A stretch of DNA of 57,133 nt, counting the filler, from Sphacelaria rigidula (Eukaryota): the NCBI GenBank assembly GCA_964200075.2. It is 3 parts of 3 records of this genome, joined end to end, with 100 filler letters (N's around TTAATTAATTAA, not from the genome) between each part and the next. Parts side by side here need not be neighbours in the genome. Positions count along the whole stretch, not along the records: positions 38,174 to 57,133 come from CAXNAA020000756.1; 2 more parts are not named here. One strand, written 5' to 3'. Position 1 is the stretch's first letter; the number at the start of each line of letters is the position of its first letter. A model generated the notes under the pieces. The model did not search any database, had not been told where the DNA came from, and saw nothing but the letters and a program-made list of their open reading frames with translations. A program made the translations under genes and the position numbers. Of this stretch, positions 18,993 through 45,600 are shown piece by piece.

Positions 18993-19092
18993 NNNNNNNN
19001 NNNNNNNNNNNNNNNNNNNNNNNNNNNNNNNNNNNNTTAATTAATTAANNNNNNNNNNNNNNNNNNNNNNNNNNNNNNNNNNNNNNNNNNNN
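18993..19092. other. Artificial assembly linker/gap (N44-TTAATTAATTAA-N44)
   Basis: Exactly 100 bp. The central 12-mer gives stops in all six frames. Identical to 38074-38173. Confidence 0.97.
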
Positions 19093-21850: not shown

Positions 21851-24800
21851 TCTGGCGGCGCCGTCATGCTCGGTGGGCTTGCGTTGACGGGCTGTGCGGT
21901 ATCGAATGGCGCTGTGAGAGGGCTCAACGTAGGCGTGTCCAAGTTGAAGGGTGTCGAAGGCTGGGGTGTCGCGGTGGTGGATCCTCTGGTGGGCTGTTCC
22001 AGATCGAAAGGAGGCAACGATTTCCCGGGTTCCGTGGTCGTTACCATGGGTGAAATTGAGGGCTCTGCCGGGGTTGAGGGAGCCGTTGTTGGCCCCGTCA
22101 TGGGGGTTATCGGCGTGTCCGTTGGTGTGGGTACGGCAGCGAAGGGAGACTGGAATTGTTGGTAGAACGTCCGCCACATCCCCATCGGCCAACACGAGAC
22201 ATGTATAACAACGGGTTTCGTTTCATGTCGTGTAGAGTGCCGCGTCCGACGGGCATTATTGTTGTGAACACGGTGGTATATCATGTGCCGACATGACGTT
22301 GGCGTCAGTGGCAACATGCCGGGCGGTGCACCGGCAATGGCGGGAGACAACACCGGTACACGCCGCGCGTGTGCACGTGGTAATGCGACACGTGTACCAC
22401 GATGATGGGAACAAAAGGTCGGATGGTGTGCCGTCGACGGAGGGAGGGAGGAGGGCATAAACACGCGAGTTTTGTGAGAATAGATGCAGCGTGATGTACC
22501 CGGGGTGTTAATGTGACATGACATCACTCACGTAAACATGTGCAAACTCATGCCGACGTGTTTGGGAAACGCGTCGTAGCGGTATTTCCGTCGAACATCG
22601 GCGCAAACGTGGGAAGACATGGCGCGGAGGTTGTGGGGGTGCGTGCGAGCTGGGCCAGCCTAGAGTATCTCAAGGTTGCAGGCCCGCTTTCATGTCAGTT
22701 CTGAGAGTGTAAATTTAAGATGGGGTTAGGAAAAATTCTAGGCATGATCATGTATGTACATCGAGACAAAAATAGTTTTTTCACAAATGCGGTAACAATC
22801 AAAATCCACACTTGAGTGCATGTGTAGAACTCATGGAAAAAATGTTTCCATCCGAATACATAGTTTTTACTGTAACCAAGCGATTCTCCGCACCAAATGT
22901 AAAAGTCCGACTCTCGGAATCGAGTTGACTACGGGTAATATCAAAGTTTGACCGGTCGAAGTCCGGATCAGTATTTTGCAGGTCATTTACGAGCCCACAT
23001 TTAGGTACTTGTGCTTGCAATTTCTTGAGGGAGGGGCATAATGAAAAAAATGGGACATGTTGATAAATTTGTTATTGAAGTAGAAATTACTTGTTCACGA
23101 AAACGCGTTCAACTCACCGAAACAAAATGAAACTCGACTTTTGTCGTTTCCAATACGAGCTGGGCCGGCCTCAAAACTAAAACTGCTTCCACCGAAAATG
23201 TCTTAACAACCGTGGCTACTGAAGTCGCCGTACTGGAAACATATTTCGAGCCAACATATCGCTGTGATAAGAAGATGGCCACGCGTGCGCTCCAACAGCT
23301 CTCGATGTACTTAATGAGGTTCATACAAACGAAAAGGCCGTGTGCCAAAAACATATCGAGTTCAGTACGGGGCGGAACCGTTGCCAGGGTGCAGGAAACA
23401 TTGGTGCGTTTCCCCGCAGACCCGCTTCTCCCTTGAAATCTTTGATTTCCGATTCGTCATTTTTATCCTGGATGTTGGATTTCCATCGTCGAAAACATGA
23501 GGACGTGAGGAGAGATGGGTTGATCCGTGTAGACCACGGACTCATCCCAAGGAGGTGTAGGGGACTAGGGTGTGAAAAAGAGTATGTGTGCCGAGTGTGA
23601 GAAACAAAGTATGGCACGTGCGAACATCTTCGTCACGTGTGGTAGTTCATGATGGGGCGATGAAGCATGTCGACGTCTGCGCAGTGTGAGATTACCCGCT
23701 GGGCCGGCGGTATCCGCATGCACGAATCCCACACTCCCACCAGGTGCGTTGTACTTTCTGTGCTACACGTAGCGCTACCTTGGCTGCCACAACTCCTTTC
23801 GGAACAATATCATTGTTGGAACCTCATCGTCACGTTCAAGATGTAGTGCGTCGAAAAACCGCATGTACTATCCTCTGCAGTGTATCATTTTATTCTTCAA
23901 CTCACGACTATTTTGCGCCGCGTTAGGCACCAGAAAGGTCCCGCAATGATACAGGTGCTCAAGAAGGCGTGGCAGCCAATGGAGTAAGTACCACATGTAG
24001 TACAAGAGGTACAACTCGCCTCGTGGGAGTGTGGGACGCGTGCACGCGAATACATACTATCGATCCAGCGGGTAGCCTCATGGTGCGCAGACATCCATGA
24101 TATTTCATCGTCCCTGCTGAATATTTAGGCACGTGTTGTACTCAACCCTGTGAGAACCAGGTGACGACTTTTTTCTTCTGTGAATCGGCATCGTTTTCAT
24201 TCAAATTCAAGTCAAATGATGCCGATTCACAAAAAAAAAAATCGTCACAGGGTATCCAAAGGGTCAACCCAGTATATTGTCGACAACATGTTTTTTTCGC
24301 CACTCCATGGGCACACGACTTCTTTTTTTCAAAACACTCCAAACCTCTCCCATCCTCAGCACGAGTCCGCAGTCTCAAAACGCCGGCTCATCTCTCCTGG
24401 CTTCGTCACGCCTTCGACGGTGCAAACCATATTTACGAAGAAAAAAGAGTGCGTTTGGGGGCAATCGAACCGAAGTACTCTTTGCCCTGACGGTGACAGT
24501 GTGACAATGCGGCCACCGTGGCGCTTTTTCCATGCGAGAACACTGAAACGACAATGCGTGGCTCAATTTTCCGGATTTCGGGGTGAAATGTCGACACCAG
24601 AGGCACCGCACTCAGGCCTACCCCACCCCTCCTTCGGCTTTTAGTTTCATATTTTCCTCGCTTACTTCAAGGGATTTGAGAATAGCCCAATATATTGGAC
24701 GGCTTAAAGTGAGGGTAAAAACATACAGCATATAAAGCCGAGAGAATGACGCGGTGGGCCCAAGTGTAGCTCCTCCGGTGTCCAAGTTTCACCCCGACAT

Positions 24801-27800
24801 TGGAAAACTTGACCCGCGCGTAGCCTGTGGACTGTTGCCACGGAGCCTTGATCGGCCGAGCTCGTATGCCCTCGCGAATCGCCACACCCGTTTTCAGATG
24901 TCAATAGTGAAAAAAAATCCGAGAAACTGATATCAGGGCCCAAAAAATCGCTCATATCTCACTAAAAAGTCCCCAAAACATGAACAAATAATGGAAGGAA
25001 ATGAAACATTTCAAGGAGCCGAAAAACATTCACCATGCCCTCGTAGGTCCTCATCCCAAATGATGAAGCACAATCTCATAATTGTAGCGCGAAACCACAT
25101 AACAAATCAATTTTACCATGGAATTTTGTGTACGACGTATCTCGAGATAAAAAGCAAACTAGGTGAAGGTGGGGATATCGATCGTTTCCCCGTGCTCCGT
25201 GTTTCCACCAACAATTGGCAACATTCGCTGTATTTATCGTTCGGGGTTTCCTATAGAGTTGAGTAGTTGAGTAGTTGAGAAGGGACCCTACCTCCGTACG
25301 GTATAGGAACTACTCGACATGGCGTTCATGAGAAATACGGTTCAACGGGATGCTTGGCTGGCCCAGCCAACACAAAGTTCATTCGGATGATGAGTACGCA
25401 CACCATGCAGGACGGATACGTGATCATGCTTCAAGCGTCGCTCAGCTTCACGCCGGTTCAGCGAAAATAGTTTTCATCACTACGGTGCACTCTCTGCAAT
25501 GATCTCGCGGTGACTCACCAGGGTGGCGCCTGAAGGCTGAGGTGCCAGTGACCCCTCCGTACTCGATCCCACACCGGATGGCTGGAAAGTAGCACAAGTG
25601 AAACGAAAGGAGCGGCATAGAAGGATGAGTCTTCATGCTAGCTTCGAAAAAGAAAAATACTCACCAACAGGCAAATAATTCATGACATGACAATGGAAGT
25701 GTCTCGCGGAGTTGCACAAGGCACTTTGTATCTACCCTTTAACCTATCTACTGCGTGTCAGAAGCTTGTACCCAGTCGAGATCACGCACCTCCGAACTAG
25801 GTTTAAACGATAATAGCTGCGGACTGGGCGTAGCACTCGGTTTAGAAGCTGGATCAAAGACAGGGACAGGGGTAGGTTGCCCGCTAGTCGTGAAGCTAGC
25901 CGGCGCGGATGTGGCGTCAGAACTTGGCTGTGCCGTGGGCACTGGCGCGGGGCCAGTAGTCACCGGGGATACAGGGTCAACTGCAGCTCTTGAGGTGGGC
26001 TCCACGGTAGGCTTTGCAATCGAATCTCCCGAAGGCGCCGGCGTCGACAACATCGGCGGCACAAGCCGCGGACTGGGCACGGTGGTTTGTTTGGGAGTCG
26101 AATCAGCAACAGGAACAGCGGTGGGTTCCCCACTGGCCGTAGACGTCGACTGCGCGGGTATGCCGTCCGAAGTTGGCGGTGCCGTGGGCGTGAACGCGGG
26201 GCTCAAAGTTACAGGAGATACGGGATCAACCGCGGCCCCCGAGGTGGGCTCAACGGTGGACTGTGAGATGGAGTCTACCGATGGCGCAGGTGTCGACGCC
26301 GTCGGGAATACCGGTCGCATGCTAGGCACAGTGGTTTGCTGGGAAGTGGGGTCAGCAGCGGGAACACGAGTGGGCTCCTCGCTAGCCGTAGACGTAGCCG
26401 GCGCGGATGTAACGTCCGAAGTTGGATGTACAGTCAGCGCCGGCGACGGGCCCCGAGTCACCGGAGATACGGAGCCACCTGTAGCTACATCGGTGGGCTC
26501 CACGCTGGGCTGTGTGATCGAATCTCCTGATGGTGCAGGTGTCGACGCCGTCGGGGGTACAGGTCGCGTGCTAGGCACAGTGGTCTGTTGGGAAGTCGGA
26601 TCAGCGACAGGAACAGCGGTGGGTTCCCCGTCAGCTGTAGCGCCAGCCGGCGCGGATGTGGCGTCCGAAGAAGGTTGTACCGTCAGCGCTGGCGAGGAGC
26701 TTGGAGTCACCGGGGATACGGGATCAACTGTAGCTCCTGTGGTGGGCTCCACGGTGGACTGTGAGATCGCATCTCCTAACGGCGCAGGTGTCGACGCCGT
26801 CGGGAATACAGGTCGAGTGCTAGGCACAGTGGTTTGTTGGGAAGTCGGGTCAGCGACGGGAACACGAGTGGGCTCCCCGCTAGCCGTAGACGTAGCCGGA
26901 GCGGATGTGGCGTCCGAAGTTGGTCGTACAGTCAGCGCTGGCGAGGAGCTTGGGGTCACCGGGGATACGGGGCCACGTGTGGCTTCATCGGTGGGCTCAA
27001 CGGTGGACTGTGAGATCGCATCTCCTGATGGAGTAGGCGTCGACGCCGTCGGGGATACAGCTCGCGTGCTAGGCACAGTGGTTTGTTTGAAAGTCCGATC
27101 AGCGACGGGAACGGGGGTAGGTTGCCCGCTAGCCGTAGACGTAGCCGGCGCGGGTGTGGCGTCCAGAGTTGGTTGTACAGTCAGCGCTGGCGAGGGGCCT
27201 GGGGTCACCGGGGATACGGGGTCAACTGTAGCTACAGCGCTGGGTTCAACGCTGGACTGAGTGATCGAACCTCCCGACGGTGCAGGCGTCGACCCCGTCG
27301 GTGAAACAAGCTGCGGACTGGGTACAGTGGTTTGTTGGAAAGCCGTATCAGCAAAGGGGACAGGGGTGGGTTGCCCGCTAGCCGTGGAGGCAGCCAACGC
27401 GGGGGTGGCATCAAAAGTTGGTTGTACAGTCAGCGTCGGCGCGGGGCCCGTAGTCACCGGAGATACGGGGTCAACTGTACCTACAGAGGTGGGCTCCACG
27501 GTGAGCTTTGAAATCGCATCTCCCGACGGCGCAGGTGTCGACGCCACCGGCGGCACGAGCACCGTGCTAGGCACAGTGGTTTGTGTGGGAGTCGGATCAG
27601 CGAACGGAACAGCGGTGGGCTCCCCGCTAGCAGCAGAGGCCACCGGCGCAGGTGTGGCATCAGAACTTGGTTGTACAGTCAGCGCAAGTGGGGGGCTCGG
27701 CGTCACCGAGGATACCGGGTCACGCGGAGCACTCGTTGTGGGCTCGACGCTAGGCGGTGAGATCGAATCTCCCGACGGCGCAGGTGTCGACGCCATCGCG

Positions 27801-30800
27801 AATACAGGTCGAGTGCTAGGCACAGTGGTTTGCTGGGAAGTCGGGTCAGCGACAGGAACACGAGTGGGCTTCCCGCTGGCCGTAGACGTAGCCGGCGCGG
27901 ATGTGGCGTCCGAAGTTGGTTGTACAGTCAGCGCCGGTGGGGGGCTTGGCGTCACAGGGGATACGGAGTCACGCGGAGCCCTCGTTGTGGGCTCGACGCT
28001 AGGCGGTGAGATCGAATCTCCCGATGGCGTAGGGGTCGACGCCGTCGGAGGTACAGATCGAGTGCTAGGCACAGTGGTTTGCTGGGAAGTGGGGTCAGCA
28101 GCGGGAACACGAGTGGGCTCCCCGCTGGCCGTAGACGTGGCCGGCGCGAATGTGGCGTCCGAAGTTGGTTGTACAGTCAGCGCCGGCGACGGGCTCTGAG
28201 TCACCTGAGATACGGGGCCACGTGGAGCTACATGGGTGGGCTCCACGGTGGACTGTGAGATCGAATCTCCCGACGGCGCCGGCGTCGACGCCGTCGGGAA
28301 TACAGGTCGCATGCTAGGCACAGTGGTTTGCTGGGAAGAGGGGTCAGCGGAGTGAACAAGGGTGGGCTCCCCGCTAGCCGTAGACGTAGCCGGCGCGGAT
28401 GTGACGTCCGAAGTTGGTTGTACCGCCGGCACTGGCGCGGGGCCTGGGGTTACCAGGGATACGGAGCCACCTGTAGCTACATCGGTGGGCTCCACGCTGG
28501 GCTGTGCGATCGAATCTCCTGATGGTGCAGGTGTCGACGCCGTCGGGGGTACAGGTCGCATGCTAGGCACAGTGGTCTGTTGGGAAGTCGGATCAGCAAC
28601 AGGAACAGCAGTGGGTTCCCCGTCAGCTGTAGCGCCAGTCGGCACGGGTGTGGTGCCCGAAGTTGGTTGTACCGTCAGCGCTGTCGAGGAGCTTGGAGTC
28701 ACCGGGGACACGGGGTCAACTGTAGCTCCTGTGGTGGGCTCCACGGTGGACTGTGAGGTCGAATCTCCCGATGGCGCAGGTGTCGACGCCGTCGGGAATA
28801 CAGGTCGAGTGGTAGGCACAGTGGTTTGCTGGGAAGTGGGGTCAGCAGCGGGAACACGAGTGGGCTCCCCGCTAGCCGTAGACGTAGCCGGAGCGGATGT
28901 GGCGTCCGAAGTTGGTTGTACAGTCAGCGCTGGCGACGGGCTTGGACCCACCGGCGATACGGGGTCAACTGCAACTACTGCGGTAGGCTCTACACTGGGC
29001 TGTGCGATCGAATCTCCTGATGGCGTGGGCGTCGACGCCGTCGGGGGTACAGGTCGCGTGCTAGGCACAGTGGTTTGTTGGGAAGTCGGATCAGCGGAGG
29101 GAACAGGGGTGGGTTGCCCGCTAGCCGTAGACGTAGCCGGCACGGGTGTGGTGCCCGAAGTTGGTTGTACCGTCAGCGCTGGCGAGGGGCCTGGAGTCAC
29201 CGGGGATACGCGGTCAACTGTGGCTCCCGCGGTGGGTTCAACGGTGGATTGTGAGGTCGAATCTCCCGACGGCGCAGGCGTCGACGCCGTCGGGGGTGCA
29301 GATCGCATGGTCGGGACAGTGGTTTGCTGGGAAATCGGATCACCGACGGGGACAGGGGTGGGCTCCCCGCTAGCCGTAGACGTAGCCGGCGCGGTCGTGG
29401 TTTCCGAAGTTGGTTGTACAGTCACGGCTAGCGAGGGGCTTGAAGTTAACGGGGTTACGGAGCCAAGGGTGGCTCCTGCGGTGGGCTCAACGGTGGACTG
29501 TGAGATAGAATCTCCCGACGGCGCAGGTGTCGACGCCACCGGGGGTGTAGATCGCGTGCTAGGCACAAGGGTTTGTTGGGGAGTCGGATCAGCGACGGGA
29601 ACGGGGGTTGGCTGCCCGCTAGCAGTAGAGGCAGCCGGCACGGATATGGCATCCGAAGTTGGTTGTACTGTCAGCGCTGGCGAGGGGCTTGGCGTCACCG
29701 GGGATACGGAGTCACGTGCAGCTGCTGTGGTGGGCTTGACGCTGGGCGGTGAGATTGAATCTCCCGTTGGGGCAAGTGTCAACCCTGCTGGGGGTGTAGG
29801 TCGCGTGCTAGGCACAGCAGTTTGTTGGGAAGCCAGATTAGCGGATGGAACAGGGGTGGGCTCCCGGCTGACCGTAGAGGCAGCTGGCGCGGGTGTGGCG
29901 TACGAAGTTGGCTGTGCCGTGGGCACTGCCGCGGGGCCCGGAGTCACCGGGGATACGGGGTCAACTGTGGCTCCTGCGGTGGGTTCGACGGTGGACTGTG
30001 AGATCGAATCTCCCGATGGCGCAGGTGTCGACGCCGTCGGGGGCACAATGCGCGGACTCGGTACAGTGGTTTGCTGGGAAGTCGGATCAGCAACGGGAGC
30101 AGAGGTGGGTTCCTGGCTGGCAGTGGGGGTGGAGTGCGCAAATGTGGGGTCAGAAGTTGGCTGTGCCATGGGAATCGGCGCGGGGCCCGGTGTCACCAGG
30201 GGTACGGGGTCAACGGTGGCTCCTGCGGTGGGCTCAACGGTGGACTGTGAGATCAAATCACCCGATGGCGCAGGTGTCGACGCCGTCGGGGGCACAAGCC
30301 GCGGACTGGGCGCAGCGGTTAGTTTGGAAGAAGTGTAAGCGGTGGGAACGGGGGTAGGTTTTGTGCTTGGTTCAAGAGGAGGCTGTGCGGAGATGGAGTC
30401 AGAAGTTGGCAGGACAGTGGGCGCTCGCGCGGGGTCCGGAGTCAATGCAGGTACGGGGCCAACGGTGACCCCTGAGTTGGGCTCTACGCTTGGCTGTATG
30501 ATCGAATCTCCCGATGGCGCAGGCGTCGTCACCGTCGGGGGCGCAAGCTGCGGGCTGAGTGTAACGGTTTGTTGAGAAGTCGGATCACCGATAGGAGCAG
30601 AGGAAGACTGTGCGGATGTGGCGTCAGGAGATGGCCCTGCTGTGGGCGCTGGTGCGGGACCAGGAGTCACTGCAGACACAGGGTCAGGGGTGGCTCCCAC
30701 GGTGGGCTGTGTGATCAAATCTCCCGATGGCACTGGCGTCATCATCGGGGGATTACGCTGCGGGCTGGGTGCAGCGGTTAGTTTGATAGTCGGACCAGTC

Positions 30801-33800
30801 ATGGGAAGAGGGGTGTATGTCATGCTTGGTACAAGGGGAGACTGTTCAGATGTGGAGTCTGGAGTTGGCTGTGCCGTGGTCGCTGGCTCTGGGCCCGGAG
30901 TCCCTGCAGTTACGGAGTCAAGCGTGGCTTCTACGGTTGGCTCTACAGTGGACAGGTCAATCGAATCGTCCGATGGTGCAGGGGTCGACTCTTTCGCTGG
31001 CAGGCGCGTGGACACGGCGCTGGGTTCCTGCGGTATGAGTCGTTTGATATGAAGGATGTAAGGGGTAACACTGAGAAGTTGATATGCGACAGAAAGGATT
31101 ATTGAAGTAGAACGCGAGAAGACGGTAGCCGACATCGATATATCGTGCGGAGTAATAATCACACCACCTGACCTCATTTCGAGGTTGACCTTCGAGAAGT
31201 ATCAACTCTTCTTGCCACATACCATCATCCTATGGACACACCTTCGATATTTCTTGCAAAACGTAGCCACCAGTGACGTGTACATCTCGAGACAAGTCAA
31301 AATATTTTCATATATACATGCCTACGGATACCACGTCGGGGTGTAAAAACAAATCAAGGTGGAGGAAGGGTAAGAGGTAGAATCCACCCGTTCGAATCTA
31401 GAGTGGGCGAGCTGATCACATTGTGACAAAGAGCGCGGAGTGAACTTGTCAAAGTCAAGCACAACGCCGAATTCTATTCGGACAAGCCCCAAATTTATAA
31501 GAACACGCATTTGCGCGACGTACTGCGTACTTCTGATTTATGGGCTCCGCAAACGTGATTTTGAAAGGGCACTTCGACTGCGAAGGTGGCTAGCGGACAA
31601 TACGTATCAAATGCTTTTTGCGGCGTCCCAGAAAGGTGTTATGTAGCCGCCGACCACGACAAGCATCGACGCATTACACGTTTCATCTGACAAGCACCAG
31701 TTGCTGGCAACATTTATATCCGCAGAACATACACTCGCCGATGTCGGACAATACTGACCGTTCTTGTTTGCACAAGCGTATACTGTCTGCATTTCATGTG
31801 TCATCTGTACCGTGCAGCCATGTAGGACGTACCACCATCTTGTGCAGGAACTGTACTGTATACAACACAGACGGTACAAGTCGTTCAAACGATACAGTGA
31901 CACATCGTCTGCACGGCCCGTAGCCTATACTAACGCTACAAAAGAGATCAAATACAGCACTGTACTGAACTGTACACAAAAAAACATTACTACTGCACAA
32001 CAGGGTAAACACCTCACGTTAACTATGAGCTGATTCCACACCACATGACGTTGTGCACTTGTGAACTACGGCGAAGTCTAACCCGAGACATGTGGTGGAA
32101 AGCTCAGGTGGATGATCGCATTCACATATCGATACCAACGCCTGCTGGCCACTGGATCGTGAGGCATGCCGTTGAGTCATACTCGTAGACTCATAGTTCT
32201 CGTTAGGGCGAGAACAAAAGAAACTGCTTCAACAAAAAAAGCGTTGTCCCCGCAATCCATTCGAGTAACAGATCTGTAAAAACTTCGCCGGAATTGCTTC
32301 TTTCAGTCTTGACTGGTGAACGTGGCTAAATTTATCCCCAGAAGGTGAACAAAACGGATTCCTTTGTCACGAGTTAGCCCACAGATTCATTATTCAGATC
32401 CATGGTCGCACAATAGGTGTCGGATTCTGGTTGCATGAAGCGTAATTAGTCGCACCTCTCACGGCACAGAGACGAATAAATTCTCCCAACAGCACCCAGT
32501 TAAGCCTCGTTGTCTTGACTATGGACGGCCGCGAGTCCCCCTCTGGGCGGAAATGTCTGTACAGCTAAACAAGCTGACCCACCGTGCCATGGACTCAACA
32601 CCGGGAGTCTATCCCGGTTCAAGTTTCGCCTTTCATGTGTGTTCTCAGGCTTGTGGGTTTGAGTGGGATTCGATTCGAGTTGCTGAAACGATTTTCGACC
32701 CCAGCGACATACAGTGTGAGGAAAAGTACGATGCAGTACAGGACAAGCCGCAATTGAGTTTAGCTAGTGCCCCCTTTCGGACACTGAATGCCACAAGTTG
32801 CTTTTGGGGAAGCTGGCGTTTCAGCAGTCAAACGCGTCTCCTGCCGTGGTTCCGGTTCCGCAACTTCACTCTGGCGAGAGTTCCACCTTCCGTATGTGCG
32901 GGGCACGTGTGTGCATCCGTGAGCGCATTTTTTGCGATACAACGGACCAGGTGTCGACGGTGTCTTGGCTGTAAATATTAGAAGGAGAAAAACTTGGTCG
33001 CGGCCTATTGAATCTACTTTGGCCACGACAGCTTCGTCAACCCTCAAAGCGCATCAATCGAGGACTATACGATCCTCGTCACGGGCCGAATCTAGCCCCG
33101 GAGGCATGGAGCAGCTTTTGAAACTCCGGCGGCAGCATGCAAAAATAGGTGAAAGTCTTGCTCCCGTGGCTCTACCTGATTGTGCAGCACTCAGTCCAAC
33201 ATTACTTCAAATCGCAAGCACGTGAACAACCCCTGATGAAATGAGGTAGACCCTGGATGGGAGGTCCGCTCGGCCAGTGGTGATCTTCAGGGGAAATTTA
33301 CGTCTCGAAATAAAGACGAGCGGGGTCCGCTTTTAGATTGACGGAAGCAATTTCTGCGCCGATCGTTGTTTTCTGGAAGTGAGGCGCCACTCAAGCGCGA
33401 TCATCGTTCGCGGGATGCACCCTTGACCAACAGCAAAGCAAATTACAGGTCAGCATTTGGGAAATAGTATCCAGAATCCATAACTTTCGCCGCTCGTGGT
33501 TCCATATTCAAAGTTCGAGTTCATTGAGGGTCAAAGTGCAGTTATCTCAAATCCTTGTACCCCGCCATACCTCGGTTGTTGACTGCGGTCCCACCAGCGG
33601 CTGCAACGTGGTAGGAGGGACCTGCGAGCAGATGCCAAAGTCAATAGCTTAGGTCTCACGCGATGTACACAGAGCATTCAGGGGGCGAAGTAGGTTTTGC
33701 GCTCGAACGGAGCTATGTCCTCTTTTTGTGACAAAATGAAAAATGTGCGTAAAAAAAAAAATGCGCCCACTTCACATTCCGGCGTCAGCAGTCATAACGA

Positions 33801-36800: not shown

Positions 36801-38073
36801 ATGTCAGTTTCATCTCCAGATGGCGTTGGTGTTGACACTATCGACTGCGCACAGTATGAACGAAACGCAAGGGGACGACAGAATCGGACATTGAGCGAGC
36901 TGAGTCATGCACAGCGACTCGCGGGCTGGGCTAGGCGTAGATGAACAAAAGACAAGTCACTGGAGGTGGAGAACACCAACGAGATAACCCCCGCATCAAG
37001 AACTGAATTATTTCCTCACTTGGGATGCAGCACACTCAAAATCGACTGATCAATCCGAGCGTAGTTCTCGAAAGACGTTTGCGAACACAGGCACACACAA
37101 CGCATCGGTCATACCTCCGGGGGGGGCGTCAAGACAGGTTGGTCTACGCCCATGAGCGAAGGTGCTGGCGATGCCCTCGGAGCCGAAGTTGGATCCTCTG
37201 AGTCAGCTACCGTAGGTTTTGGAGACGACGCCGGAGCCGGCGTTGGATCCTCGGACTCGGCAGGTGTAGGTATTGGCGACTCCGCCGGAGCCGATGTTGA
37301 ATTTTCTGTCTCCGCTTCCGTAGGTTTCGGCGACGCTGCCGGAGCCGGCGATGGATCCTCAGACTCAGCAAGGGTAGGTTCTGGTGACGCCGCCGGACCC
37401 GGCGTCGGATCCTCAGACTCAGCCCCTGTGGGTTTCGGCGACACCGCCATAGATGGCGTTGGATTCTCGGAACCAACAAGCGTAGGTTCCGGTGACGCCA
37501 CCGGACCCGGCGTCGGGTCTTCGGGCTCACCAAGCGTTGGTTCCAGCGACGCCGCCGGAACCGGCGTTAGATCCTCAGACTCAGCTTCCGTAGGTTCCAG
37601 CGACGCCGCCGGAGCCGAAGTTGGGTCTTCGGACTGAGCTCTTGTGGGTTCCGGCGACGCCGCCGGAGCCAGCGTTGCATCTTCAAATTCAGCTTCCGTA
37701 GGTTTTCGTGACGCGGCCGGAGCCAGCGTTGGAATGTTGAAATCAGAGATTGAAGGTTTCGGCGACGCCGACGGAGCCGAAGTTGGGTCTTCGAACGCAC
37801 CAAGCGTGGGTTCCTGCGACGCCGCCGGAGCCGGCCTTGCATTCTCGGACTCGGCAGCTGTGGGTTCCGGCGACGCGGCCGGAGCCGGCGTTGTACCTTC
37901 AGAATCAGCCTGTGTAGGTTCTGGCGAAGTCGCCGGAGCCGAAGTTGGGTCTTCGAACGCACCAAGCGTGGGTTCCTGCGACGCCGCCGGAGCCGGCGTT
38001 GCATTCTCGGACTCGGCAGCTGTGGGTTCCGGCGACGCGGCCGGAGCCGGCGTTATACCTTCAGAATCAGCCT
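19093..38073 (-). CDS. Internal part of a giant Pro/Thr/Ser/Ala-rich mucin/adhesin-like repeat protein (both ends lost in gaps)
   Basis: Exons in transcription order: 37115-38073 (open at gap; donor GAG|gtatga), 36746-36844 (SIVSTPTPSGDET...PALPPM), 25790-31027 (5238 nt, cag|GAACCC...GAG|gtgcgt), 25519-25581 (PSGVGSSTEGSLAPQPSGATL), 19093-22149 (cag|TCTCCC..., open at gap). All junctions are phase 0 with canonical splice sites, giving ~9.4 kb of open frame. Additional small exons cannot be excluded. Confidence 0.75.
23634..24135. repeat. Degenerate ~190-bp inverted repeat pair in an intron
   Basis: 23634-23824 aligns with the reverse complement of 23936-24135. Shared blocks: cgatgaa, gtctgcgca, tacccgctgg, tcccacactcccac, ttggctgccac, tatcattg. 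Confidence 0.75.
24142..24267. mobile_element. Palindromic MITE with piggyBac-like ends (TCAA|CCCT...AGGG|TCAA)
   Basis: Arms gtgacgact...tgtgaatcggcatc (24161-24192) and gatgccgattcaca...atcgtcac (24218-24248) are near-perfect complements. Termini CCCT/AGGG are flanked by the identical 4-mer TCAA. Confidence 0.6.
25800..30750 (-). repeat. Coding tandem repeat B: 249 bp / 83 aa, about 19 copies with degenerate ends
   Basis: Unit TASTPAPSGDSISQSTVEPTAGATVDPVSPVTPGPSPALTVQPTSDATSAPATSTASGEPTRVPAADPTSQQTTVPSTRPVPP. The gtcgac marker occurs at 26292, 26541, 26790, 27039, 27288, 27537 (249-bp spacing). Confidence 0.93.
37150..38073 (-). repeat. Coding tandem repeat C: 54 bp / 18 aa, acidic, about 17 copies (truncated by gap)
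   Basis: Units such as SPEPTAAESENATPAPAA and SPEPTLAESEDPSPAPAA. Confidence 0.9.
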
Positions 38074-38173
38074 NNNNNNNNNNNNNNNNNNNNNNNNNNN
38101 NNNNNNNNNNNNNNNNNTTAATTAATTAANNNNNNNNNNNNNNNNNNNNNNNNNNNNNNNNNNNNNNNNNNNN
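38074..38173. other. Artificial assembly linker/gap (N44-TTAATTAATTAA-N44)
   Basis: Identical in structure to 18993-19092. Confidence 0.97.
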
Positions 38174-41900: not shown

Positions 41901-43126
41901 CGCTTTGGGCAGATCGTTCTCCAAAAGCTGTAGAAAAACAATCATTTCTTGCCCGATAAAACGTCGAATGTAAATCGTCAATTTCCCATCAACGGTTCCA
42001 AAAGGGTTAACTATCAAATGGGAGATCTTTGATTGCCATGTGCTGATTGTGGGTCACTTGAGTCTACACCTCCTCACAGGATTTCTGTATTGTGCATGGC
42101 ACGGGCTTGATTGGAAAATTTCGATTTTGAAACCCTGAACTCTGTTTAGGTCGCTATGCTTGTGAAGATGAGTTGGAATGTGGTCCATGGAAATCCCGAG
42201 ACCATCCTGCACAGACGAAAGGTGTCGGGGCGTGCTGGTTTGATGGGACGGGATTCCTCGCCAGGATTTCGCCGAAATGTTTTACCCACGTCACTTGCAC
42301 TTGGTTTCGATGGTACGGGCCGATGACAAAAGATTGGAGTTTGGGCTCTGTGGGGAAAGAGATGTCACCCCCCCTGCCTCTCTGGGTCAGCTTGGATCGC
42401 TTTCTTTTTGGATAGCTGCCCCAAAGACACGTGAAACATTTCCAACTAGTTTTGAAACATTCATAATCTTTTCACTAAAAGGGAGTAGCCGTGTCTCCCC
42501 GGGTGCGCCTGGACTTGTGTCGAGGCATCCTTGTTGGTATTGAGCCATGTTTCGTTCCCCTCGCTCCGAAATTATGGTCTATTGCGTACACGTCCATCTC
42601 ACTGTGAAGGCCAGCTTGTAGGAAGCGCAACCCTGTTAATGCCGCTACTTTTGTGTGAATCAGGACATTAATTCACGAGAGAGTCGTGAGCCTACATAGG
42701 AAAACCCTTCTCCATCGCAACGTTGTGAAAGGCAAAATATATCGAACACCTGAGCATGGCAATACACCCTGTTTCGAGACGAAGCTGGACAGGATCACGC
42801 TGTGAACAGATCGTCCAATAGCAGTGCCATGGTTTCTTGTGGAGTCCCACTACTACAACCCACCTACTCCTGGCCAATACGTGGCATATTGGTGCTAAAG
42901 CACCATGTCATTGCCCTTACGATGACCATATCTCGACAAAACCATGGTGAAACGTAGCTTGGGATATCAAGACCTTATACCCTCATAAACTATTTCTCAT
43001 CAGGACGATGAAATAACCCTCACCAGCCGCCTCTTGTTCGAAAGTGCTGACGTTTCCCTTAGCGCACGCCAGCATACTCCCCGCGGAGTCTCGACGTCAA
43101 AACCGGCATATAAAAAACATCATCGA

Positions 43127-45049
43127 TTATCTGCCAGGCGTCCAAGAAGAGGGACCAGACGCTCCCAGCTCCAACTTCACATTTGACTTCTCCTCAGCAT
43201 CTGTAGCCTTCACGTCATCAAACGCGCCAATGAACCCAGGCATCGCTGCTGGCGAACGACATAGCCGTCCCGTACTCGAAACACAACCACTGATGCTGGG
43301 GCTGCCACCACTACCTACGCTCCACGAACTGTGCGAAGGGACAGTCTGCCTGCTATACTCTATTACCCCACCGACATCGTGTGCATCAGAAGGGACTGTC
43401 AGCTCTGACTTCAATTCTACCCGTAACCTTGCCGCTGGAGACACCTCGTCATCAAGCCCTGTGGGTAGCTGCCCCAAGAGCAACGGTGGTGTCGTACCAG
43501 CCCGCCTCGGACCTGGACACACTCTCCGGCGAGCACCAACACTGTGGCTCCCACCGGGAGCCGGCCATGCTGCGCGCTTGCGTTTTTTGTCTCGCACGTC
43601 AGCAACGCCGCCTCCACCGCTCTCCGTCGGGCCACGGCCGGAAGAGGCCACCCCAGTAGTGGGCTCTCCGGTATCGCTGACGTTGTGTGCGGTAGCATTC
43701 TGTGGGCAGGACTTTGCCTCATCAGGGCTGTGCCTCTCGAATAAATCCAACTTAGAAAATCCCTCTCTGCCTAGCCTTTGGGTGGTCACGTTTACCATAC
43801 TCACCCTGGCATGCTTGGCACAAAAATCCGCCTTCTTGCTTCCCGCTACACCAAAAGACGGACCCTTGGAACAGCCGTCGTTGCCGCACTTCTTACTCCT
43901 CACATTGACCATTCCCTTCCTGGCGTGCTTGGAGCAGAACTCCGCCTTCTTGCTTCCCACAACACCAAACCATGGTTGCTTGGAGCAGCCGTCGTTGCCG
44001 CACTTCTTACTCCTCACATCGACCATTCCCTCCCTGGCGTGCTTAGAGCAGAACTCCGCCTTCTTGCTTCCCACTACACCAAACCATGGTTGCTTGGAGC
44101 AGCCGTCGTTGCCGCACTTCTTACTCCTCACATCGACCATTTCCGCCGTGGCATGCTTGGAGCAAAACTCCGTCTTTTTGCTCCCCGCTATACCGAACAC
44201 CGGGGTTTTGGCGCAGCCGCCGTTGCCGCACTTCTTACTCTTTACATCGAGCATTCCCTTCCTGGCATGTTTGGAACAGAACTCTGCCTTCTTGCTTCCC
44301 GCTACACCAAACGATGGACGGCTGGAGCAGCCATCGTTGCCGCACTTCTTACTCACTACATCAATCATCCCCGCCGTGGCATGCTTGGCACAAAACTCCG
44401 CCTTCTTGCTTCCCGCTACACCGAACGACGGGATCTTAGCGCAGCCGTCGTTGCCGCACTTCTTAGTCCTCACATCGACCATTCCCTCCCTGGCGTGCTT
44501 AGAGCAGAACTCCGCCTTCTTGCTTCCCACTGCACCAAACCATGGTTGCTTCGAGCAGCCGTCGTTGCCGCACCTTTTATTCCTTACATCGACCATTTCC
44601 GCCGTGGCATGCTTGGCACAAAACTCCGCCTTCTTGCTCCCCGCTACACCAAACGATGGACGACTGGAGCAGCCGTTGTTGCCACATTTTTTTGTCACTA
44701 CATCAGTCATCCCCGCCGTGGCATGCTTGGAGCAGAACTCCGCCTTTTTGCTTCCCGCTACACCAAACCACGGGTACTTGGCGCAGCCGTCGCTGCCGCA
44801 CTTCTTACTCCTCACATCGACCATTCCCGCCGTGGCATGCGTGAAGCAGAACTCCGCCCTCTTGCTTCCCGCCACACCAAACGACGGTTGCTTGAAGCAG
44901 CCGCCGTTGTCGCACTTCTTCCTCATCACATCCACCATTCCCGCGCTGGCATGCTTGAAGCAGAACTCCGCCTTGTAGCCCTGTGAACCGTGCGTTGGGC
45001 GCTTGGAGCAGCCCTCGTTGCTGCATTTGCTTCTTGCCAAGTTGGCCAT
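43127..45049 (-). CDS. EsV-1-7 cysteine-rich repeat protein (11 tandem C-x4-C-x16-C-x2-H repeats), 640 aa, single exon
   Basis: ATG at 45049 (MANLARSKCSNEGC...). Repeat consensus KKCGNDGCSKQPSFGVAGSKKAEFCSKHATAGMVDVRS matches the EsV-1-7 motif, named after Ectocarpus siliculosus virus-1 ORF7 and expanded in brown algae. It is followed by a ~215-aa low-complexity tail and a TAA stop at 43127. Confidence 0.9.
   Translation of the reverse strand: MANLARSKCSNEGCSKRPTHGSQGYKAEFCFKHASAGMVDVMRKKCDNGGCFKQPSFGVAGSKRAEFCFTHATAGMVDVRSKKCGSDGCAKYPWFGVAGSKKAEFCSKHATAGMTDVVTKKCGNNGCSSRPSFGVAGSKKAEFCAKHATAEMVDVRNKRCGNDGCSKQPWFGAVGSKKAEFCSKHAREGMVDVRTKKCGNDGCAKIPSFGVAGSKKAEFCAKHATAGMIDVVSKKCGNDGCSSRPSFGVAGSKKAEFCSKHARKGMLDVKSKKCGNGGCAKTPVFGIAGSKKTEFCSKHATAEMVDVRSKKCGNDGCSKQPWFGVVGSKKAEFCSKHAREGMVDVRSKKCGNDGCSKQPWFGVVGSKKAEFCSKHARKGMVNVRSKKCGNDGCSKGPSFGVAGSKKADFCAKHARVSMVNVTTQRLGREGFSKLDLFERHSPDEAKSCPQNATAHNVSDTGEPTTGVASSGRGPTESGGGGVADVRDKKRKRAAWPAPGGSHSVGARRRVCPGPRRAGTTPPLLLGQLPTGLDDEVSPAARLRVELKSELTVPSDAHDVGGVIEYSRQTVPSHSSWSVGSGGSPSISGCVSSTGRLCRSPAAMPGFIGAFDDVKATDAEEKSNVKLELGASGPSSWTPGR
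43781..45031 (-). repeat. Coding tandem repeat: 114 bp / 38 aa EsV-1-7 units x11
   Basis: 1251 nt = one 37-aa unit plus ten 38-aa units, followed by a degenerate partial unit (QRLGREGFSK). Confidence 0.95.
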
Positions 45050-45424
45050 CAGCTTTCTCCTCGTGTGATATTTAAGAGCAAACTGCTCACAGTAGCACAG
45101 TTGACCAAGCGGGAGGGAGTTTGTATATAAGCTACTTGAGCTATTTCGTAGAACGAACGACATTCCTATTGCTGCACATGAACCGCAAGAACGGGAAATA
45201 CTCGCATCCACTTGAGTGACATTTCAATTAAACTGACCCACACAGCTGCAAACCTACTGCCCACCGTGATTTCAGGTGTTCCGACCTCTCTACACAATCA
45301 CAGCACGATTCAGAAGCGAAAGGGGCACTGGAAAAGTACCAAAGGAGAACGACCTTGTCCGAGAGAACGTTGGAAGCAAAATACCAACGCCACAGCGCGC
45401 CCACCGTAACAAAGAGCAAGAATG

Positions 45425-45600
45425 AGTTATTGATTGATCGATTGATTGGTCGTCACACTTTAACTCACGGCCCAGGGATCCAGTCGTGGTCACATGATAG
45501 ACGTACGAAACAAACCAAGACTGATACACTCGCTGGAGAAAAAAGAAGACAAAACAGAAAGGGTAGGACAGAACGATAGAGTAGACCGAGAATGAATAAA
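45425..45600 (-). mobile_element. Retroposon 3'-end remnant with (AATC)n tail upstream of the EsV-1-7 gene
   Basis: The reverse complement reads T-rich...gtacgtctatcatgtgaccacgactggatccc...gtgtgacgaccaatcaatcgatcaatcaat, homologous to 11049-11132 and 52436-52500. The far boundary is uncertain. Confidence 0.5.

Follow-up and report, generated by a model that had tools for sequence, protein, structure and literature searches.

An EsV-1-7 repeat array of Sphacelaria rigidula as a candidate polydactyl zinc-finger nucleic-acid binder

A gene of Sphacelaria rigidula that encodes eleven tandem EsV-1-7 repeats raises the question of what such arrays recognize, and through which of their residues. An earlier note on the window (the whole stretch of DNA analysed, 57,133 nucleotides) proposed a TALE-like reader with a code in the two residues that flank a fixed proline. 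The published passages that we found describe the EsV-1-7 repeat as a possible novel zinc finger of unknown function. They place EsV-1-7 proteins among the most amplified brown-algal families (2018 proteins in 31 genomes), report tandem-cluster expansion with stage-specific expression, and give the family as the largest orthogroup in a 2026 atlas. The gene is an ordinary member of this family. Our preferred reading, to which we give about even chances, is that its array is a polydactyl zinc-finger nucleic-acid binder, with DNA a likelier ligand than RNA.

Gene model, array and tail

The array is enclosed by a minus-strand ORF (43127..45211), within which we propose a single-exon CDS. Columns are numbered from the first Cys of each unit (position 1); column 9 precedes the fixed Pro and column 11 follows it. 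The features are listed below, with the residues at columns 9/11 and at columns 35-36 given for each unit.

45083..45085, minus strand: candidate 3' splice acceptor of a 5'-UTR intron, a CAG after a pyrimidine-rich stretch, identified from sequence
43127..45049, minus strand: proposed CDS, single exon, 640 aa, based on the ORF and on the first ATG 3' of the acceptor-like CAG (45049); an 8-aa N-terminus, then 11 EsV-1-7 units, then a 215-aa tail
43775..45025, minus strand: array of 11 EsV-1-7 Cys3His units, C-x4-C-x16-C-x2-H, net charge +46
44915..45025, minus strand: unit 1 (37 aa, one residue short), R/T, MR
44801..44914, minus strand: unit 2, Q/S, RS
44687..44800, minus strand: unit 3, Y/W, VT
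44573..44686, minus strand: unit 4, R/S, RN
44459..44572, minus strand: unit 5, recent duplicate of units 9 and 10, Q/W, RT
44345..44458, minus strand: unit 6, I/S, VS
44231..44344, minus strand: unit 7, R/S, KS
44117..44230, minus strand: unit 8, T/V, RS
44003..44116, minus strand: unit 9, Q/W, RS
43889..44002, minus strand: unit 10, Q/W, RS
43775..43888, minus strand: unit 11, G/S, TT
43130..43774, minus strand: C-terminal tail of 215 aa, with 37-41% identity to the corresponding region in 10 S. rigidula EsV-1-7 proteins
43574..43588, minus strand: K-K-R-K-R within a conserved V-A-x-V-R-x-x-K-R-K-R-A block, from conservation in relatives
43403..43414, minus strand: L-K-S-E (M-K-V-E in relatives), a hydrophobic-K-x-E motif, from alignment with relatives
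43169..43180, minus strand: V-K-L-E, a second hydrophobic-K-x-E motif, in a conserved S-N-V-K-L-E-L-G block near the C-terminus
43129..43127, minus strand: stop codon TAA, end of the proposed CDS
42488..43126, minus strand: possible 3' UTR, from contigs of runs X6-X8 (guessed to be RNA)

Pfam family PF19114 (EsV_1_7_cys) matches the protein in 11 stretches with 550-551 bits (E about 1e-170; 1.4e-169), where the gathering score is 25 bits, and relatives occur in brown algae and Nucleocytoviricota. The EsV-1-7 identity first given to the array is thus secure. The gene shares its repeat, ligand pattern and tandem order with the other members of this family, which include Ectocarpus IMMEDIATE UPRIGHT and a gene of Ectocarpus siliculosus virus 1. 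Ten of the head-to-tail units have 38 aa and the first has 37 aa. TRF reports a period of 114 nt over the array, with 10.3 copies and 81% matches. All four ligands are present in 11/11 units, and the x15 spacing of unit 1 is due to a one-residue deletion. The array has 79 K+R and 33 D+E (pI 9.6), in keeping with the strongly basic character noticed earlier. Its location (previously given as 43781-45031), the SK, FK, AK and SS pairs ahead of the proline motif, and the entire series of Pro-flanking residues from R/T to G/S were also read correctly. A scan of all six frames found no further EsV-1-7 units elsewhere in the window, and none of five other large ORFs in the window has a Pfam match.

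The CDS model is consistent with the alignment of the tail to the C-termini of 10 S. rigidula proteins. No Pfam family matched the tail. We take its K-K-R-K-R to be nuclear-localisation-signal-like, and L-K-S-E is presumably SUMO-consensus-like; the sense that we attach to V-K-L-E as a hydrophobic-K-x-E motif is likewise assumed. Relative to other EsV-1-7 proteins, the window protein is long in repeats (11 units, versus 4-9 in each of the 120 best homologues of 428) and has an unusual Trp at column 11 in four units. Its tail is common only to a Sphacelaria-type subfamily.

Contigs from three runs of one study, which are RNA only by guess, align to 44975..45084 and continue for about 205 letters that have no match in the segment used for the comparison. 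They provide a weak hint of a 5'-UTR intron at 45083..45085. At the other end of the gene, contigs of runs X6-X8 (1132-1194 letters) are collinear from 43681 to beyond 42600, and the X7 contig runs on for 112 letters past the end of the segment used for the comparison. The interval 45125..45427 is covered in run X1 and has no cover in X6-X8, again taken as RNA only by guess. Read joints inside the array and at 43185/43530 were set aside as repeat artefacts because their sides are of 20-23 letters and all but one also occur in X1. The sole joint without an X1 counterpart is 43846/43922, found in X7 only. Two plus-strand ORFs over the array (43044..44978 and 43778..44986) were rejected as antisense by-products of the repeat, given that the family match is in the minus frame only.

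Variable columns in the window array and across the family

We computed per-column entropy and codon-level change, the comparison suggested in the earlier note. Among the 38 columns of the window array, entropy peaks at column 9 (2.30 bits, 11 units). The non-synonymous distance at this column is 0.69, versus array-wide values of 0.37 (synonymous) and 0.16 (non-synonymous), and pN outside the hot set is 0.12. The suggestion that the residues on both sides of the proline change radically therefore holds for column 9. Column 11 (1.68 bits, pN 0.42) is no more variable than columns 35 (1.87 bits), 29 (1.69 bits) and 36 (1.62 bits). The description of the scaffold as almost invariant was too strong, as columns 4, 7, 24, 28, 29, 35 and 36 vary too.

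Recurrence of the same residue pairs had been likened to a small vocabulary, an interpretation that we do not retain. With codons 9 and 11 set aside, the DNA of the Q/W units (5, 9 and 10) is 3-6% divergent, compared with a mean of 19% for unlike units, so the recurrence of Q/W reflects descent. R/S recurs because R and S are the commonest family residues at columns 9 and 11. Unit 3 is closest to unit 6 (11% DNA divergence), but both of its hot codons are unlike those of unit 6.

The repeat census drew on the 120 best database homologues of 428 (E<=1e-3) and on 83 giant-virus loci retrieved with two of the homologues as queries. Named homologues are brown algae without exception, the nearest being from Sphacelaria, Ectocarpus, Pylaiella, Scytosiphon and Ascophyllum. 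The window protein and its own sub-arrays, used as queries, found no match in viral or metagenome contigs. Across the 71 arrays with at least five complete units, the mean within-array pairwise difference is 0.79 at column 9, 0.75 at column 36, 0.72 at column 35 and 0.63 at column 11. The top columns of the 25 named brown-algal arrays are 36 (0.78), 9 (0.77) and 35 (0.72), and column 11 is not hot there; its variability is comparable to that of columns 9, 35 and 36 in viral arrays.

Codons were compared in 13 arrays (the window array and 12 giant-virus loci, four near-duplicates having been dropped). Column 9 has pN above the array-wide pS in 13/13 arrays, column 11 in 12/13 and the set of columns 9, 11, 35 and 36 in 11/13, with the qualification that these within-array values compare paralogous units subject to gene conversion and that the viral arrays are not fully independent. 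Judged from these alignments, hot positions of between-unit change with pN above pS, column 9 above all, hold across the family. They are a real and apparently undescribed family-wide feature. The passages found in the EsV-1-7 literature other than the founding paper (Macaisne et al., 2017) mention neither hypervariable positions nor viral nuclease-like fusions and contain no reports of binding. No EsV-1-7 work was among the matches listed in a search for hypervariable, positive or diversifying selection.

The hot columns also share a composition. D+E occur in only 2 of 577 units at column 9, 1 at column 11, 4 at column 8, 13 at column 35 and 18 at column 36, compared with an overall fraction of 9.7% and counts of 301 at column 4 and 209 at column 29. 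Column 9 is K/R/H in 226 of the 577 units and N/Q in 164. Exclusion of acids from these columns points, indirectly, to DNA reading, and the basic charge of the array favours nucleic-acid binding. Both could instead stabilize a negatively charged Cys3His-zinc site.

Variability of this kind might arise if the hot columns were simply those loop positions that are under the weakest constraint in a structural zinc repeat, with no part in recognition, and the array a spacer or an unspecific binder of polyanions or chromatin. The family-wide entropy of column 9 (3.45 bits) is indeed equalled by that of columns 7 (3.48), 28 (3.40) and 25 (3.32). Change between homologues is also fast, in that hot residues differ in 48-59% of position-matched units of collinear homologues (65-83% identity) versus 25% overall, a turnover that could reflect an arms race or weak constraint as readily as divergence of targets. 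However, weak constraint alone is insufficient, because column 9 of the viral array L003 lies about ten-fold above synonymous divergence (corrected ratio 10.3) in units whose other positions are homogenised (pS 0.05, pN elsewhere 0.03, hot-set pN 0.38). The excess of pN at column 9 over synonymous divergence in every one of the 13 arrays also argues against loose loops, as does the fact that algal and viral arrays share their hot columns, which yet pass a strong filter against D and E. We consider this explanation decidedly unlikely.

The TALE-like reader, with two Pro-flanking residues as a small code and one unit per base, is the least probable of the explanations considered here. It finds its best case in four viral arrays (L003, L074, L072 and L071) with units that are near-identical except at columns 8/9, 11 and 35/36; in the last three, pN elsewhere is 0.06-0.09 versus 0.42-0.49 for the hot set. 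Column 9 is limited within each of the four to 3-5 residue types (among R, Q, I, L, K, N and H), and R/Q/H/I/K/N account for 428/577 units family-wide. However, columns 9 and 11 are uncoupled (no special signal, rank 118 of 703 column pairs by corrected mutual information), and 134 different pairs of residues occupy them among the 577 units. Column 11 is S/T/N in 405/577 units in addition to being quiet in the named brown-algal arrays, columns 35/36 are as hot, and the Q/W recurrence in the window is recent duplication. The predicted structure, which lacks a helical solenoid (pTM 0.46), and the zinc dependence are also unlike those of TALEs.

Predicted structure and comparison with known systems

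AlphaFold models four units with a pLDDT of 87 and a pTM of 0.46, and a single unit with a pLDDT of 85. The models consist of short strands and coil, with zero helices of at least 4 residues. The units are confident, but the array is predicted to be neither helical nor a rigid superhelix, contrary to what a TALE-like architecture implies. Invariant ligands and confident models suggest that the Cys3His set binds zinc. Zinc sites interlocked between adjacent units are unlikely, since the C-x4-C half opens the array and the C-x2-H half closes it, a single unit models well, and a single-unit protein (P0137) exists.

Foldseek searches of the PDB matched no solved DNA-binding fold (best E 0.42 for four units and 4.9 for one), and PDB searches by sequence returned chance flavivirus NS1 matches only (E at least 0.069). 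For the single unit, ArfGAP zinc fingers rank first (28 aligned columns, E 4.9-8.4, TMq 0.36-0.38). Other weak neighbours are the nsp13 zinc-binding domain, LIM, PHD and A20 ZF7, none of them significant. As all of these are protein-interaction or structural zinc modules, the array may be a scaffold that recognizes proteins or other ligands in the manner of LIM, PHD, A20 and MYM/FCS fingers. Its hot columns would make up a protein-binding surface that varies, possibly in virus-host conflict. The presence of the family in both giant viruses and algal hosts is consistent with such a role, as are the tandem-cluster expansion and stage-specific expression mentioned in the published passages and the arms-race-like combination of fast hot-residue turnover in collinear homologues with pN above pS. 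Against it, the structural matches are all non-significant, and at column 9 D/E are nearly absent and R/Q/N/K/H enriched, a pattern found more typically where nucleic acids are contacted. In addition, viral arrays fill a slot otherwise held by C2H2, C2HC or Bro-N domains ahead of the same module (see below), and a transposase has recruited the domain (PMC12477816). We regard a protein-recognition scaffold as unlikely, though it is the most probable of the alternatives to a nucleic-acid binder.

The array resembles C2H2 polydactyl arrays (e.g., KRAB-ZNF) in outline. C2H2 arrays consist of tandem autonomous zinc units joined by short conserved basic linkers, with few fast-diverging recognition positions. 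They undergo lineage-specific expansion in gene clusters, and give beads-on-a-string models without ligand. The window array is nevertheless not a member of this class. EsV-1-7 units are Cys3His and 38 aa long, with short strands and no recognition helix, and differ in spacing and ligands from the beta-beta-alpha pattern C-x2-4-C-x12-H-x3-5-H. The window protein has no match to zf-C2H2 at E<=10. Acidic residues are used at C2H2 recognition positions, but are nearly absent from the hot columns of EsV-1-7. Of the two systems to which the variable residues had been compared, C2H2 fingers remain apt in their logic of several hot positions per unit, whereas the TALE code does not, for want of coupling, in view of the 134 pairs and with columns 35/36 hot.

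The resemblance to TALEs is confined to some viral EsV-1-7 arrays that are near-identical bar a few fixed positions. TALE repeats have 33-35 aa and form a two-helix superhelix, unlike the helix-free EsV-1-7 models, and they vary only at two neighbouring residues, which come from a limited set, a pattern approached among EsV-1-7 arrays only in viral L003 and L074. EsV-1-7 units are zinc mini-domains with four to five hot columns and do not belong with TALE, PPR or PUF repeats. PPR motifs have hot positions early in the motif and at its very end, and EsV-1-7 units are similar in this respect. Two homologues match Zf_WRKY19 (PF24906) weakly over the C-x4-C-x-K-x-P half (summed 36 and 25.5 bits). 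The likeness to an ArfGAP/GATA-like treble clef is also weak, the ligand sets differ, and we transfer no function from it; in the ESM Atlas, one viral EsV-1-7 cluster has PF01412 (ArfGap) in 20% of its members.

Viral domain context and the proposed mode of binding

We identified a conserved C-terminal module of about 150 aa in 48 of the 120 best homologues. Seventy-four of 149 module representatives have at least two EsV-1-7 units, and 11 have at least three units of an 18-aa zinc repeat. Among 10 of the remaining 64 that were scanned, one C2HC finger (38.4 vs 26.3 bits) and one Bro-N (55 bits) are over threshold, and several of the 10 have sub-threshold zf-C2H2. The array in viral proteins appears to take the slot of C2H2/C2HC fingers or Bro-N, which points, indirectly, to DNA reading. 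The N-terminus of the Ectocarpus TcMar-2_Ec32 (Tc1/mariner) transposase also carries an EsV-1-7 domain (PMC12477816).

The signature of the module is R-P-D ... E-V-D-E-x-K-H, with P, E, D, E and H invariant in 58 sequences. Hjc resolvase matches P0185 with 19.6 bits (cut-off 21.1) and has E<0.1 in 4/58 members, REase_MTES_1575 reaches that E-value in 1/58, and an Atlas lead is PvuRts1I-like_N (score 0.87). Zero families in Pfam and PHROGs are over threshold for the module, and a PDB profile search returned no match. The module appears to be nuclease-like, an assignment that lies under every curated threshold. The viral relatives recall engineered zinc-finger nucleases and TALENs, and natural nucleases with modular DNA-binding domains, in that a finger array that varies is fused to a module that is constant, here one with a PD-(D/E)xK-like signature (a putative nuclease). 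In contrast, the window gene lacks the viral module and has a regulatory-looking tail in its place, so the domain-context argument extends to this gene by homology of the array only.

As a polydactyl nucleic-acid binder, the array would be a chain of eleven Cys3His mini-domains of 38 residues, each autonomous and zinc-binding, with short conserved basic linkers between them. Each unit would offer a small, non-acidic, fast-evolving contact patch composed of column 9 (mostly R/Q/H/I/K/N), its neighbours 8 and 11, and linker residues 35/36 before the first Cys of the next unit. Conserved lysines and arginines might grip the backbone. The subfamily-specific tail, with its K-R-K-R block and two hydrophobic-K-x-E motifs, may give a regulatory output. 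The logic would be that of C2H2 fingers, with several recognition residues per finger and quick turnover among paralogues, rather than the two residues per base of TALEs. We infer that the protein is nuclear, that its ligand is DNA and that contact is made through the hot columns.

A broader proposal, which we consider quite unlikely in its entirety, is that EsV-1-7 arrays add one more class to the modular DNA readers found in nature, and that they can be re-targeted. In this scheme a short base step would be read by each 38-residue zinc unit, mainly via column 9 (R/Q/I/N/K/H), with tuning by columns 8 and 11 and by linker residues 35/36 ahead of the unit. The arrays would serve giant viruses as a means to aim a PD-(D/E)xK nuclease, in a natural parallel to zinc-finger nucleases and TALENs. 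In brown algae they would have been domesticated and enlarged into a lineage-specific transcription-factor family, with IMM and the window gene among its members.

The defined fast-evolving, non-acidic positions and the occurrence of viral arrays in a DNA-binding-domain slot before a nuclease-like module lead from a 'cysteine-rich motif of unknown function' to a concrete hypothesis, that of a new polydactyl zinc-finger DNA reader. The EsV-1-7 family includes the developmental regulator IMM. If true, the hypothesis would supply a missing transcription-factor class for brown-algal development, account for a very large giant-virus gene family, and possibly provide a new compact DNA-targeting scaffold. 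The giant-virus EsV-1-7 family comprises 5821 clusters at 50% identity and is selfish-looking.

The array and its protein

The window gene is an ordinary member of the known EsV-1-7 family. In the parts of the sources covered here, the EsV-1-7 domain is described as a possible novel or uncharacterised zinc-finger class of unknown function, and the family as 2018 proteins in 31 genomes, often in tandem gene arrays, including IMMEDIATE UPRIGHT (IMM) and of probable viral origin (bioRxiv 10.1101/2024.02.19.579948, 10.64898/2026.04.27.720984; PMC7457493, PMC12993054, PMC12477816). Those parts, like the literature searches made on the family, yielded no mention of position-specific hypervariability, residue-level selection or nuclease fusions. 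The gene features are:

43127..45211, minus strand: ORF carrying the array
45085..45083, minus strand: CAG that, with a pyrimidine tract, forms a candidate acceptor
45049, minus strand: first ATG downstream of the candidate acceptor
45025..43775, minus strand: 11 head-to-tail units, from translation
43129..43127, minus strand: stop codon TAA

The resulting protein has 640 residues. Its first unit has 37 residues and the other ten have 38 (Tandem Repeats Finder: period 114 nt, 10.3 copies, 81% matches). Pfam PF19114 (EsV-1-7 cysteine-rich motif) matches the protein over 11 stretches (550 bits, E=1.4e-169), and a six-frame scan with a profile built from the units identified no extra units elsewhere in the window. 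All units carry the ligand set C1, C6, C23 and H26 (C-x4-C-x16-C-x2-H), with columns counted from the first Cys. Also invariant are G5, P10, G13, F22, A27, M31 and V34 (11/11 units), and F12 is present in 10/11. The residues that the earlier note listed on either side of the fixed Pro (X-P-X), and at the two positions preceding X-P-X, match the translation exactly, and the units are strongly basic, as it stated (K+R 79 vs D+E 33, net +46, pI 9.6). Two antisense ORFs run through the array on the plus strand (43044-44978, 644 aa; 43778-44986, 402 aa). These have no family match and are a product of the repeat's periodic absence of stop codons.

The 215-residue tail is genuine coding sequence; it has 37-41% identity (E 1e-22 to 6e-30) to ten Sphacelaria rigidula EsV-1-7 proteins, aligned at their C-termini. 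Three blocks are conserved in the alignment: V-A-x-V-R-x-x-K-R-K-R-A, which we take to be nuclear-localisation-like, M-K-V-E, and S-N-V-K-L-E-L-G. The K-x-E motifs of the tail are presumably SUMO-consensus-like.

Nine public sequencing runs contain the stretch; none is recorded as RNA, and for three, all from a single study, RNA is only a guess. Contigs of these three are collinear from ~42488 to 43681 and then onward through the array. Contigs placed on 44975..45084 bear ~205 extra letters without a place on the stretch, a weak hint compatible with a 5'-UTR intron. In run X1, a short segment at 45428-45528, ~400 nt upstream of the gene, reaches a summed contig depth of 38145 vs ~67 alongside; it probably represents a dispersed repeat or a piece of a transposon.

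Variable columns and their residues

Hypervariability had been proposed on both sides of the Pro. In the window array this holds for column 9, the residue before Pro, which has the top entropy of the 38 columns (2.30 bits); column 11 (1.68 bits) is matched by columns 35 (1.87), 29 (1.69) and 36 (1.62). Array-wide codon distances are 0.37 (synonymous) and 0.16 (non-synonymous); by column, the non-synonymous distance is 0.69 at 9, 0.46 at 35, and 0.42 at both 11 and 29. The small recurring vocabulary of X-P-X pairs is otherwise explained. Q/W units 5, 9 and 10 are recent duplicates: they differ by only 3-6% in DNA (codons 9 and 11 excluded), where unlike units average 19%. The two R/S units, 17% apart in DNA, carry the commonest family residues at both columns (R in 142/577 units at column 9, S in 291/577 at column 11). 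Units 3 (Y/W) and 6 (I/S) are mutual nearest relatives (11% divergence) and differ at both codons 9 and 11.

A database search returned 428 homologues at E<=1e-3. The best 120 of the 428, among which all named homologues are brown algae (33-60% identity), gave 812 unit rows; a limit of two gaps per row left 579, which comprise 577 distinct units. Column 9 is the most variable within arrays but not in the pooled alignment, where its entropy (3.45 bits) is not above that of columns 7, 28 and 25, and column 11 is middling (2.71 bits). For the 71 arrays that have five or more complete units, the mean within-array pairwise difference by column is 0.79 (9), 0.75 (36), 0.72 (35), 0.63 (11) and 0.62 (7). 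Column 36 leads in 25 arrays of named brown algae, followed by 9 and 35, and in just 13 of these is column 11 above its own array's mean; the order in 66 other arrays is 9, 11, 36, 35. Hypervariable positions are real and family-wide, but the hot set consists of column 9 and columns 35/36, joined by 11 mainly in viral arrays.

Units matched by position in ten collinear homologue pairs (65-83% identity) differ most at column 36 (0.59), 11 (0.55), 25 (0.52), and 9 and 7 (0.48 each), vs 0.25 overall. Thus, the hot residues turn over fast and are not conserved unit identities. Columns 9 and 11 are uncoupled (corrected mutual information rank 118/703 pairs) and form 134 distinct pairs in the 577 units, which argues against a paired code at these columns.

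Acidic residues by column in the 577 distinct units
Column: units with D or E
9: 2/577
11: 1/577
8: 4/577
24: 10/577
35: 13/577
36: 18/577
4: 301/577
21: 253/577
29: 209/577

The hot columns are variable yet filtered. The D+E fraction over all columns is 9.7%, and viral units are alike in their scarcity of acidic residues (2/129 at column 9, 1/129 at column 11). Of the 577 units, 428 have R, Q, H, I, K or N at column 9, and 405 have S, T or N at column 11. Mere weak constraint at the hot columns, one of the main rival explanations, has to be weighed against this filter and against codon distances in giant-virus arrays.

With homologues P0017 and P0079 as queries we identified 83 giant-virus contig loci, which hold 16 arrays of five or more complete units (121 units altogether). 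Their pooled within-array non-synonymous distance peaks at column 9 (0.53), ahead of 11 (0.51), 36 (0.50), 35 (0.48) and 24 (0.46) (overall: synonymous 0.38, non-synonymous 0.22). Removal of near-duplicates (L076, L081, L073, L075) and addition of the window left 13 arrays. The non-synonymous distance (pN) exceeds the array's own synonymous distance (pS) in 13/13 at column 9, 12/13 at column 11 and 11/13 for the four-column hot set (9, 11, 35, 36), all being uncorrected Nei-Gojobori proportions among paralogous units open to gene conversion, with ancestry common to the viral arrays. Units of viral locus L003 are near-identical in DNA (pS 0.05), with pN 0.38 in the hot set and 0.03 elsewhere; in L074, L072 and L071 pN is 0.42-0.49 vs 0.06-0.09. 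Units of these four extreme arrays differ essentially at 8/9, 11, 35/36 and sometimes 2-4, and in this they look TALE-like. A strict TALE-like code is a further main rival explanation.

Predicted fold and candidate function

A TALE is a superhelical solenoid, whereas the EsV-1-7 array is predicted to be zinc-finger units arranged as beads on a string. The AlphaFold2 model of units 4-7 (128 aligned sequences, pLDDT 87.4) is largely coil, interrupted by short strands (columns 12-14, 22 and 31-33), and predicts no rigid superhelix, as its pTM is low (0.46); a TALE-like solenoid is disfavoured. A single unit (150 aligned units) gave pLDDT 85.2. Just before the first strand, variable columns 9 and 11 alternate with the fixed P10 and the aromatic column 12, which suggests that 9 and 11 may be directed away from the core. 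Foldseek identified no significant PDB fold match for the four-unit model (best: nsp13 zinc-binding domain, E 0.42, and LIM/PHD domains) or the one-unit model (best: ArfGAP fingers, E 4.9, and A20 ZF7), and a PDB sequence search gave chance matches only. Pfam gives Zf_WRKY19 and CoV_NSP13_ZBD as weak neighbours.

The best-supported mechanism, to which we give an even chance, is a polydactyl DNA-binding array. Each unit would bind DNA through a few non-acidic recognition positions, and in the window protein the array would be coupled to a nuclear regulatory tail. The main rival on the nature of the ligand is a protein-recognition scaffold, and the evidence that tells most on this choice comes from domain arrangements in viral relatives.

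A C-terminal module in relatives, and other repeats

A conserved C-terminal module of ~150 residues is present in 48/120 best homologues, none from a named alga; the window protein is without it. Invariant residues mark two of its blocks, R-P-D ... E-V-D-E-x-K-H and R-F-N-P-D, and its family comprises 5821 clusters at 50% identity (E<=1e-3). No curated family matches the module above threshold. Hjc (archaeal Holliday-junction resolvase) reaches 19.6 bits in homologue P0185, below the 21.1 cut-off, and E<0.1 in 4/58 members; REase_MTES_1575 matches once and RE_AspBHI_N in 12/58. Since all these are sub-threshold and a PDB profile search was blank, we term the module nuclease-like, short of a nuclease assignment. 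ESM Atlas gave a PvuRts1I-like nuclease domain (0.87), as a lead only.

Two or more EsV-1-7 units precede the module in 74 of the 149 best representatives, and three or more units of another, 18-residue zinc repeat do so in 11; the other 64 have neither. Of ten of the 64 that were scanned, one carries a C2HC finger above threshold (38.4 bits), another a Bro-N domain (55 bits, E 1.3e-14), and four give sub-threshold zf-C2H2 matches, accompanied in one of these four by a single EsV-1-7 unit. Both Bro-N and C2H2-type fingers bind DNA. By domain order, the EsV-1-7 array fills the same slot before the module as these do. High copy number, together with N-terminal domain swaps, suggests that the module represents a selfish, homing-endonuclease-like gene class in Nucleocytoviricota.

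The module family is very large and unannotated. The module is nearly always C-terminal (alignment of 58 viral loci; proteins P0122-P0270), with a small zinc ribbon before it that has a zf-A20 score in two proteins. In giant-virus proteins at L039:730-2058 and L053:628-2061, and also in L014 and L022, it stands behind arrays of the 18-residue repeat (C-x2-C-G-G-x3-C-x-H-...). The 12 units of L039 are near-identical apart from residues 7-9 and 14-15 and the final residue, which is of 5 types. A constant scaffold with few variable positions recurs here in a second repeat family.

Other repeats in the window are:

19045-22527, minus strand: ORF of 1160 aa; 165-nt (55-aa) repeat, 15.4 copies, 87% matches, at 19312-21857
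25748-31177, minus strand: ORF of 1809 aa; 249-nt (83-aa) repeat, 17.9 copies, 79% matches, at 25880-30330
37160-38073: GC-rich 54/162-nt tandem repeat immediately preceding an N stretch

The first ORF lies at 55-67% GC and extends into an N stretch; its product, rich in Pro/Ala/Ser/Thr (P 23%) and without a Pfam family, resembles a secreted or wall protein of the mucin or extensin kind. The second, a further large low-complexity repeat protein ~3 kb away, is Pro/Thr/Ser-rich (P 20%, T 17%, S 15%), also with no Pfam family. Four N runs of 44 (176 in total; 18993-19036, 19049-19092, 38074-38117, 38130-38173) lie within the inter-record filler as two pairs, each adjoining a tandem repeat.
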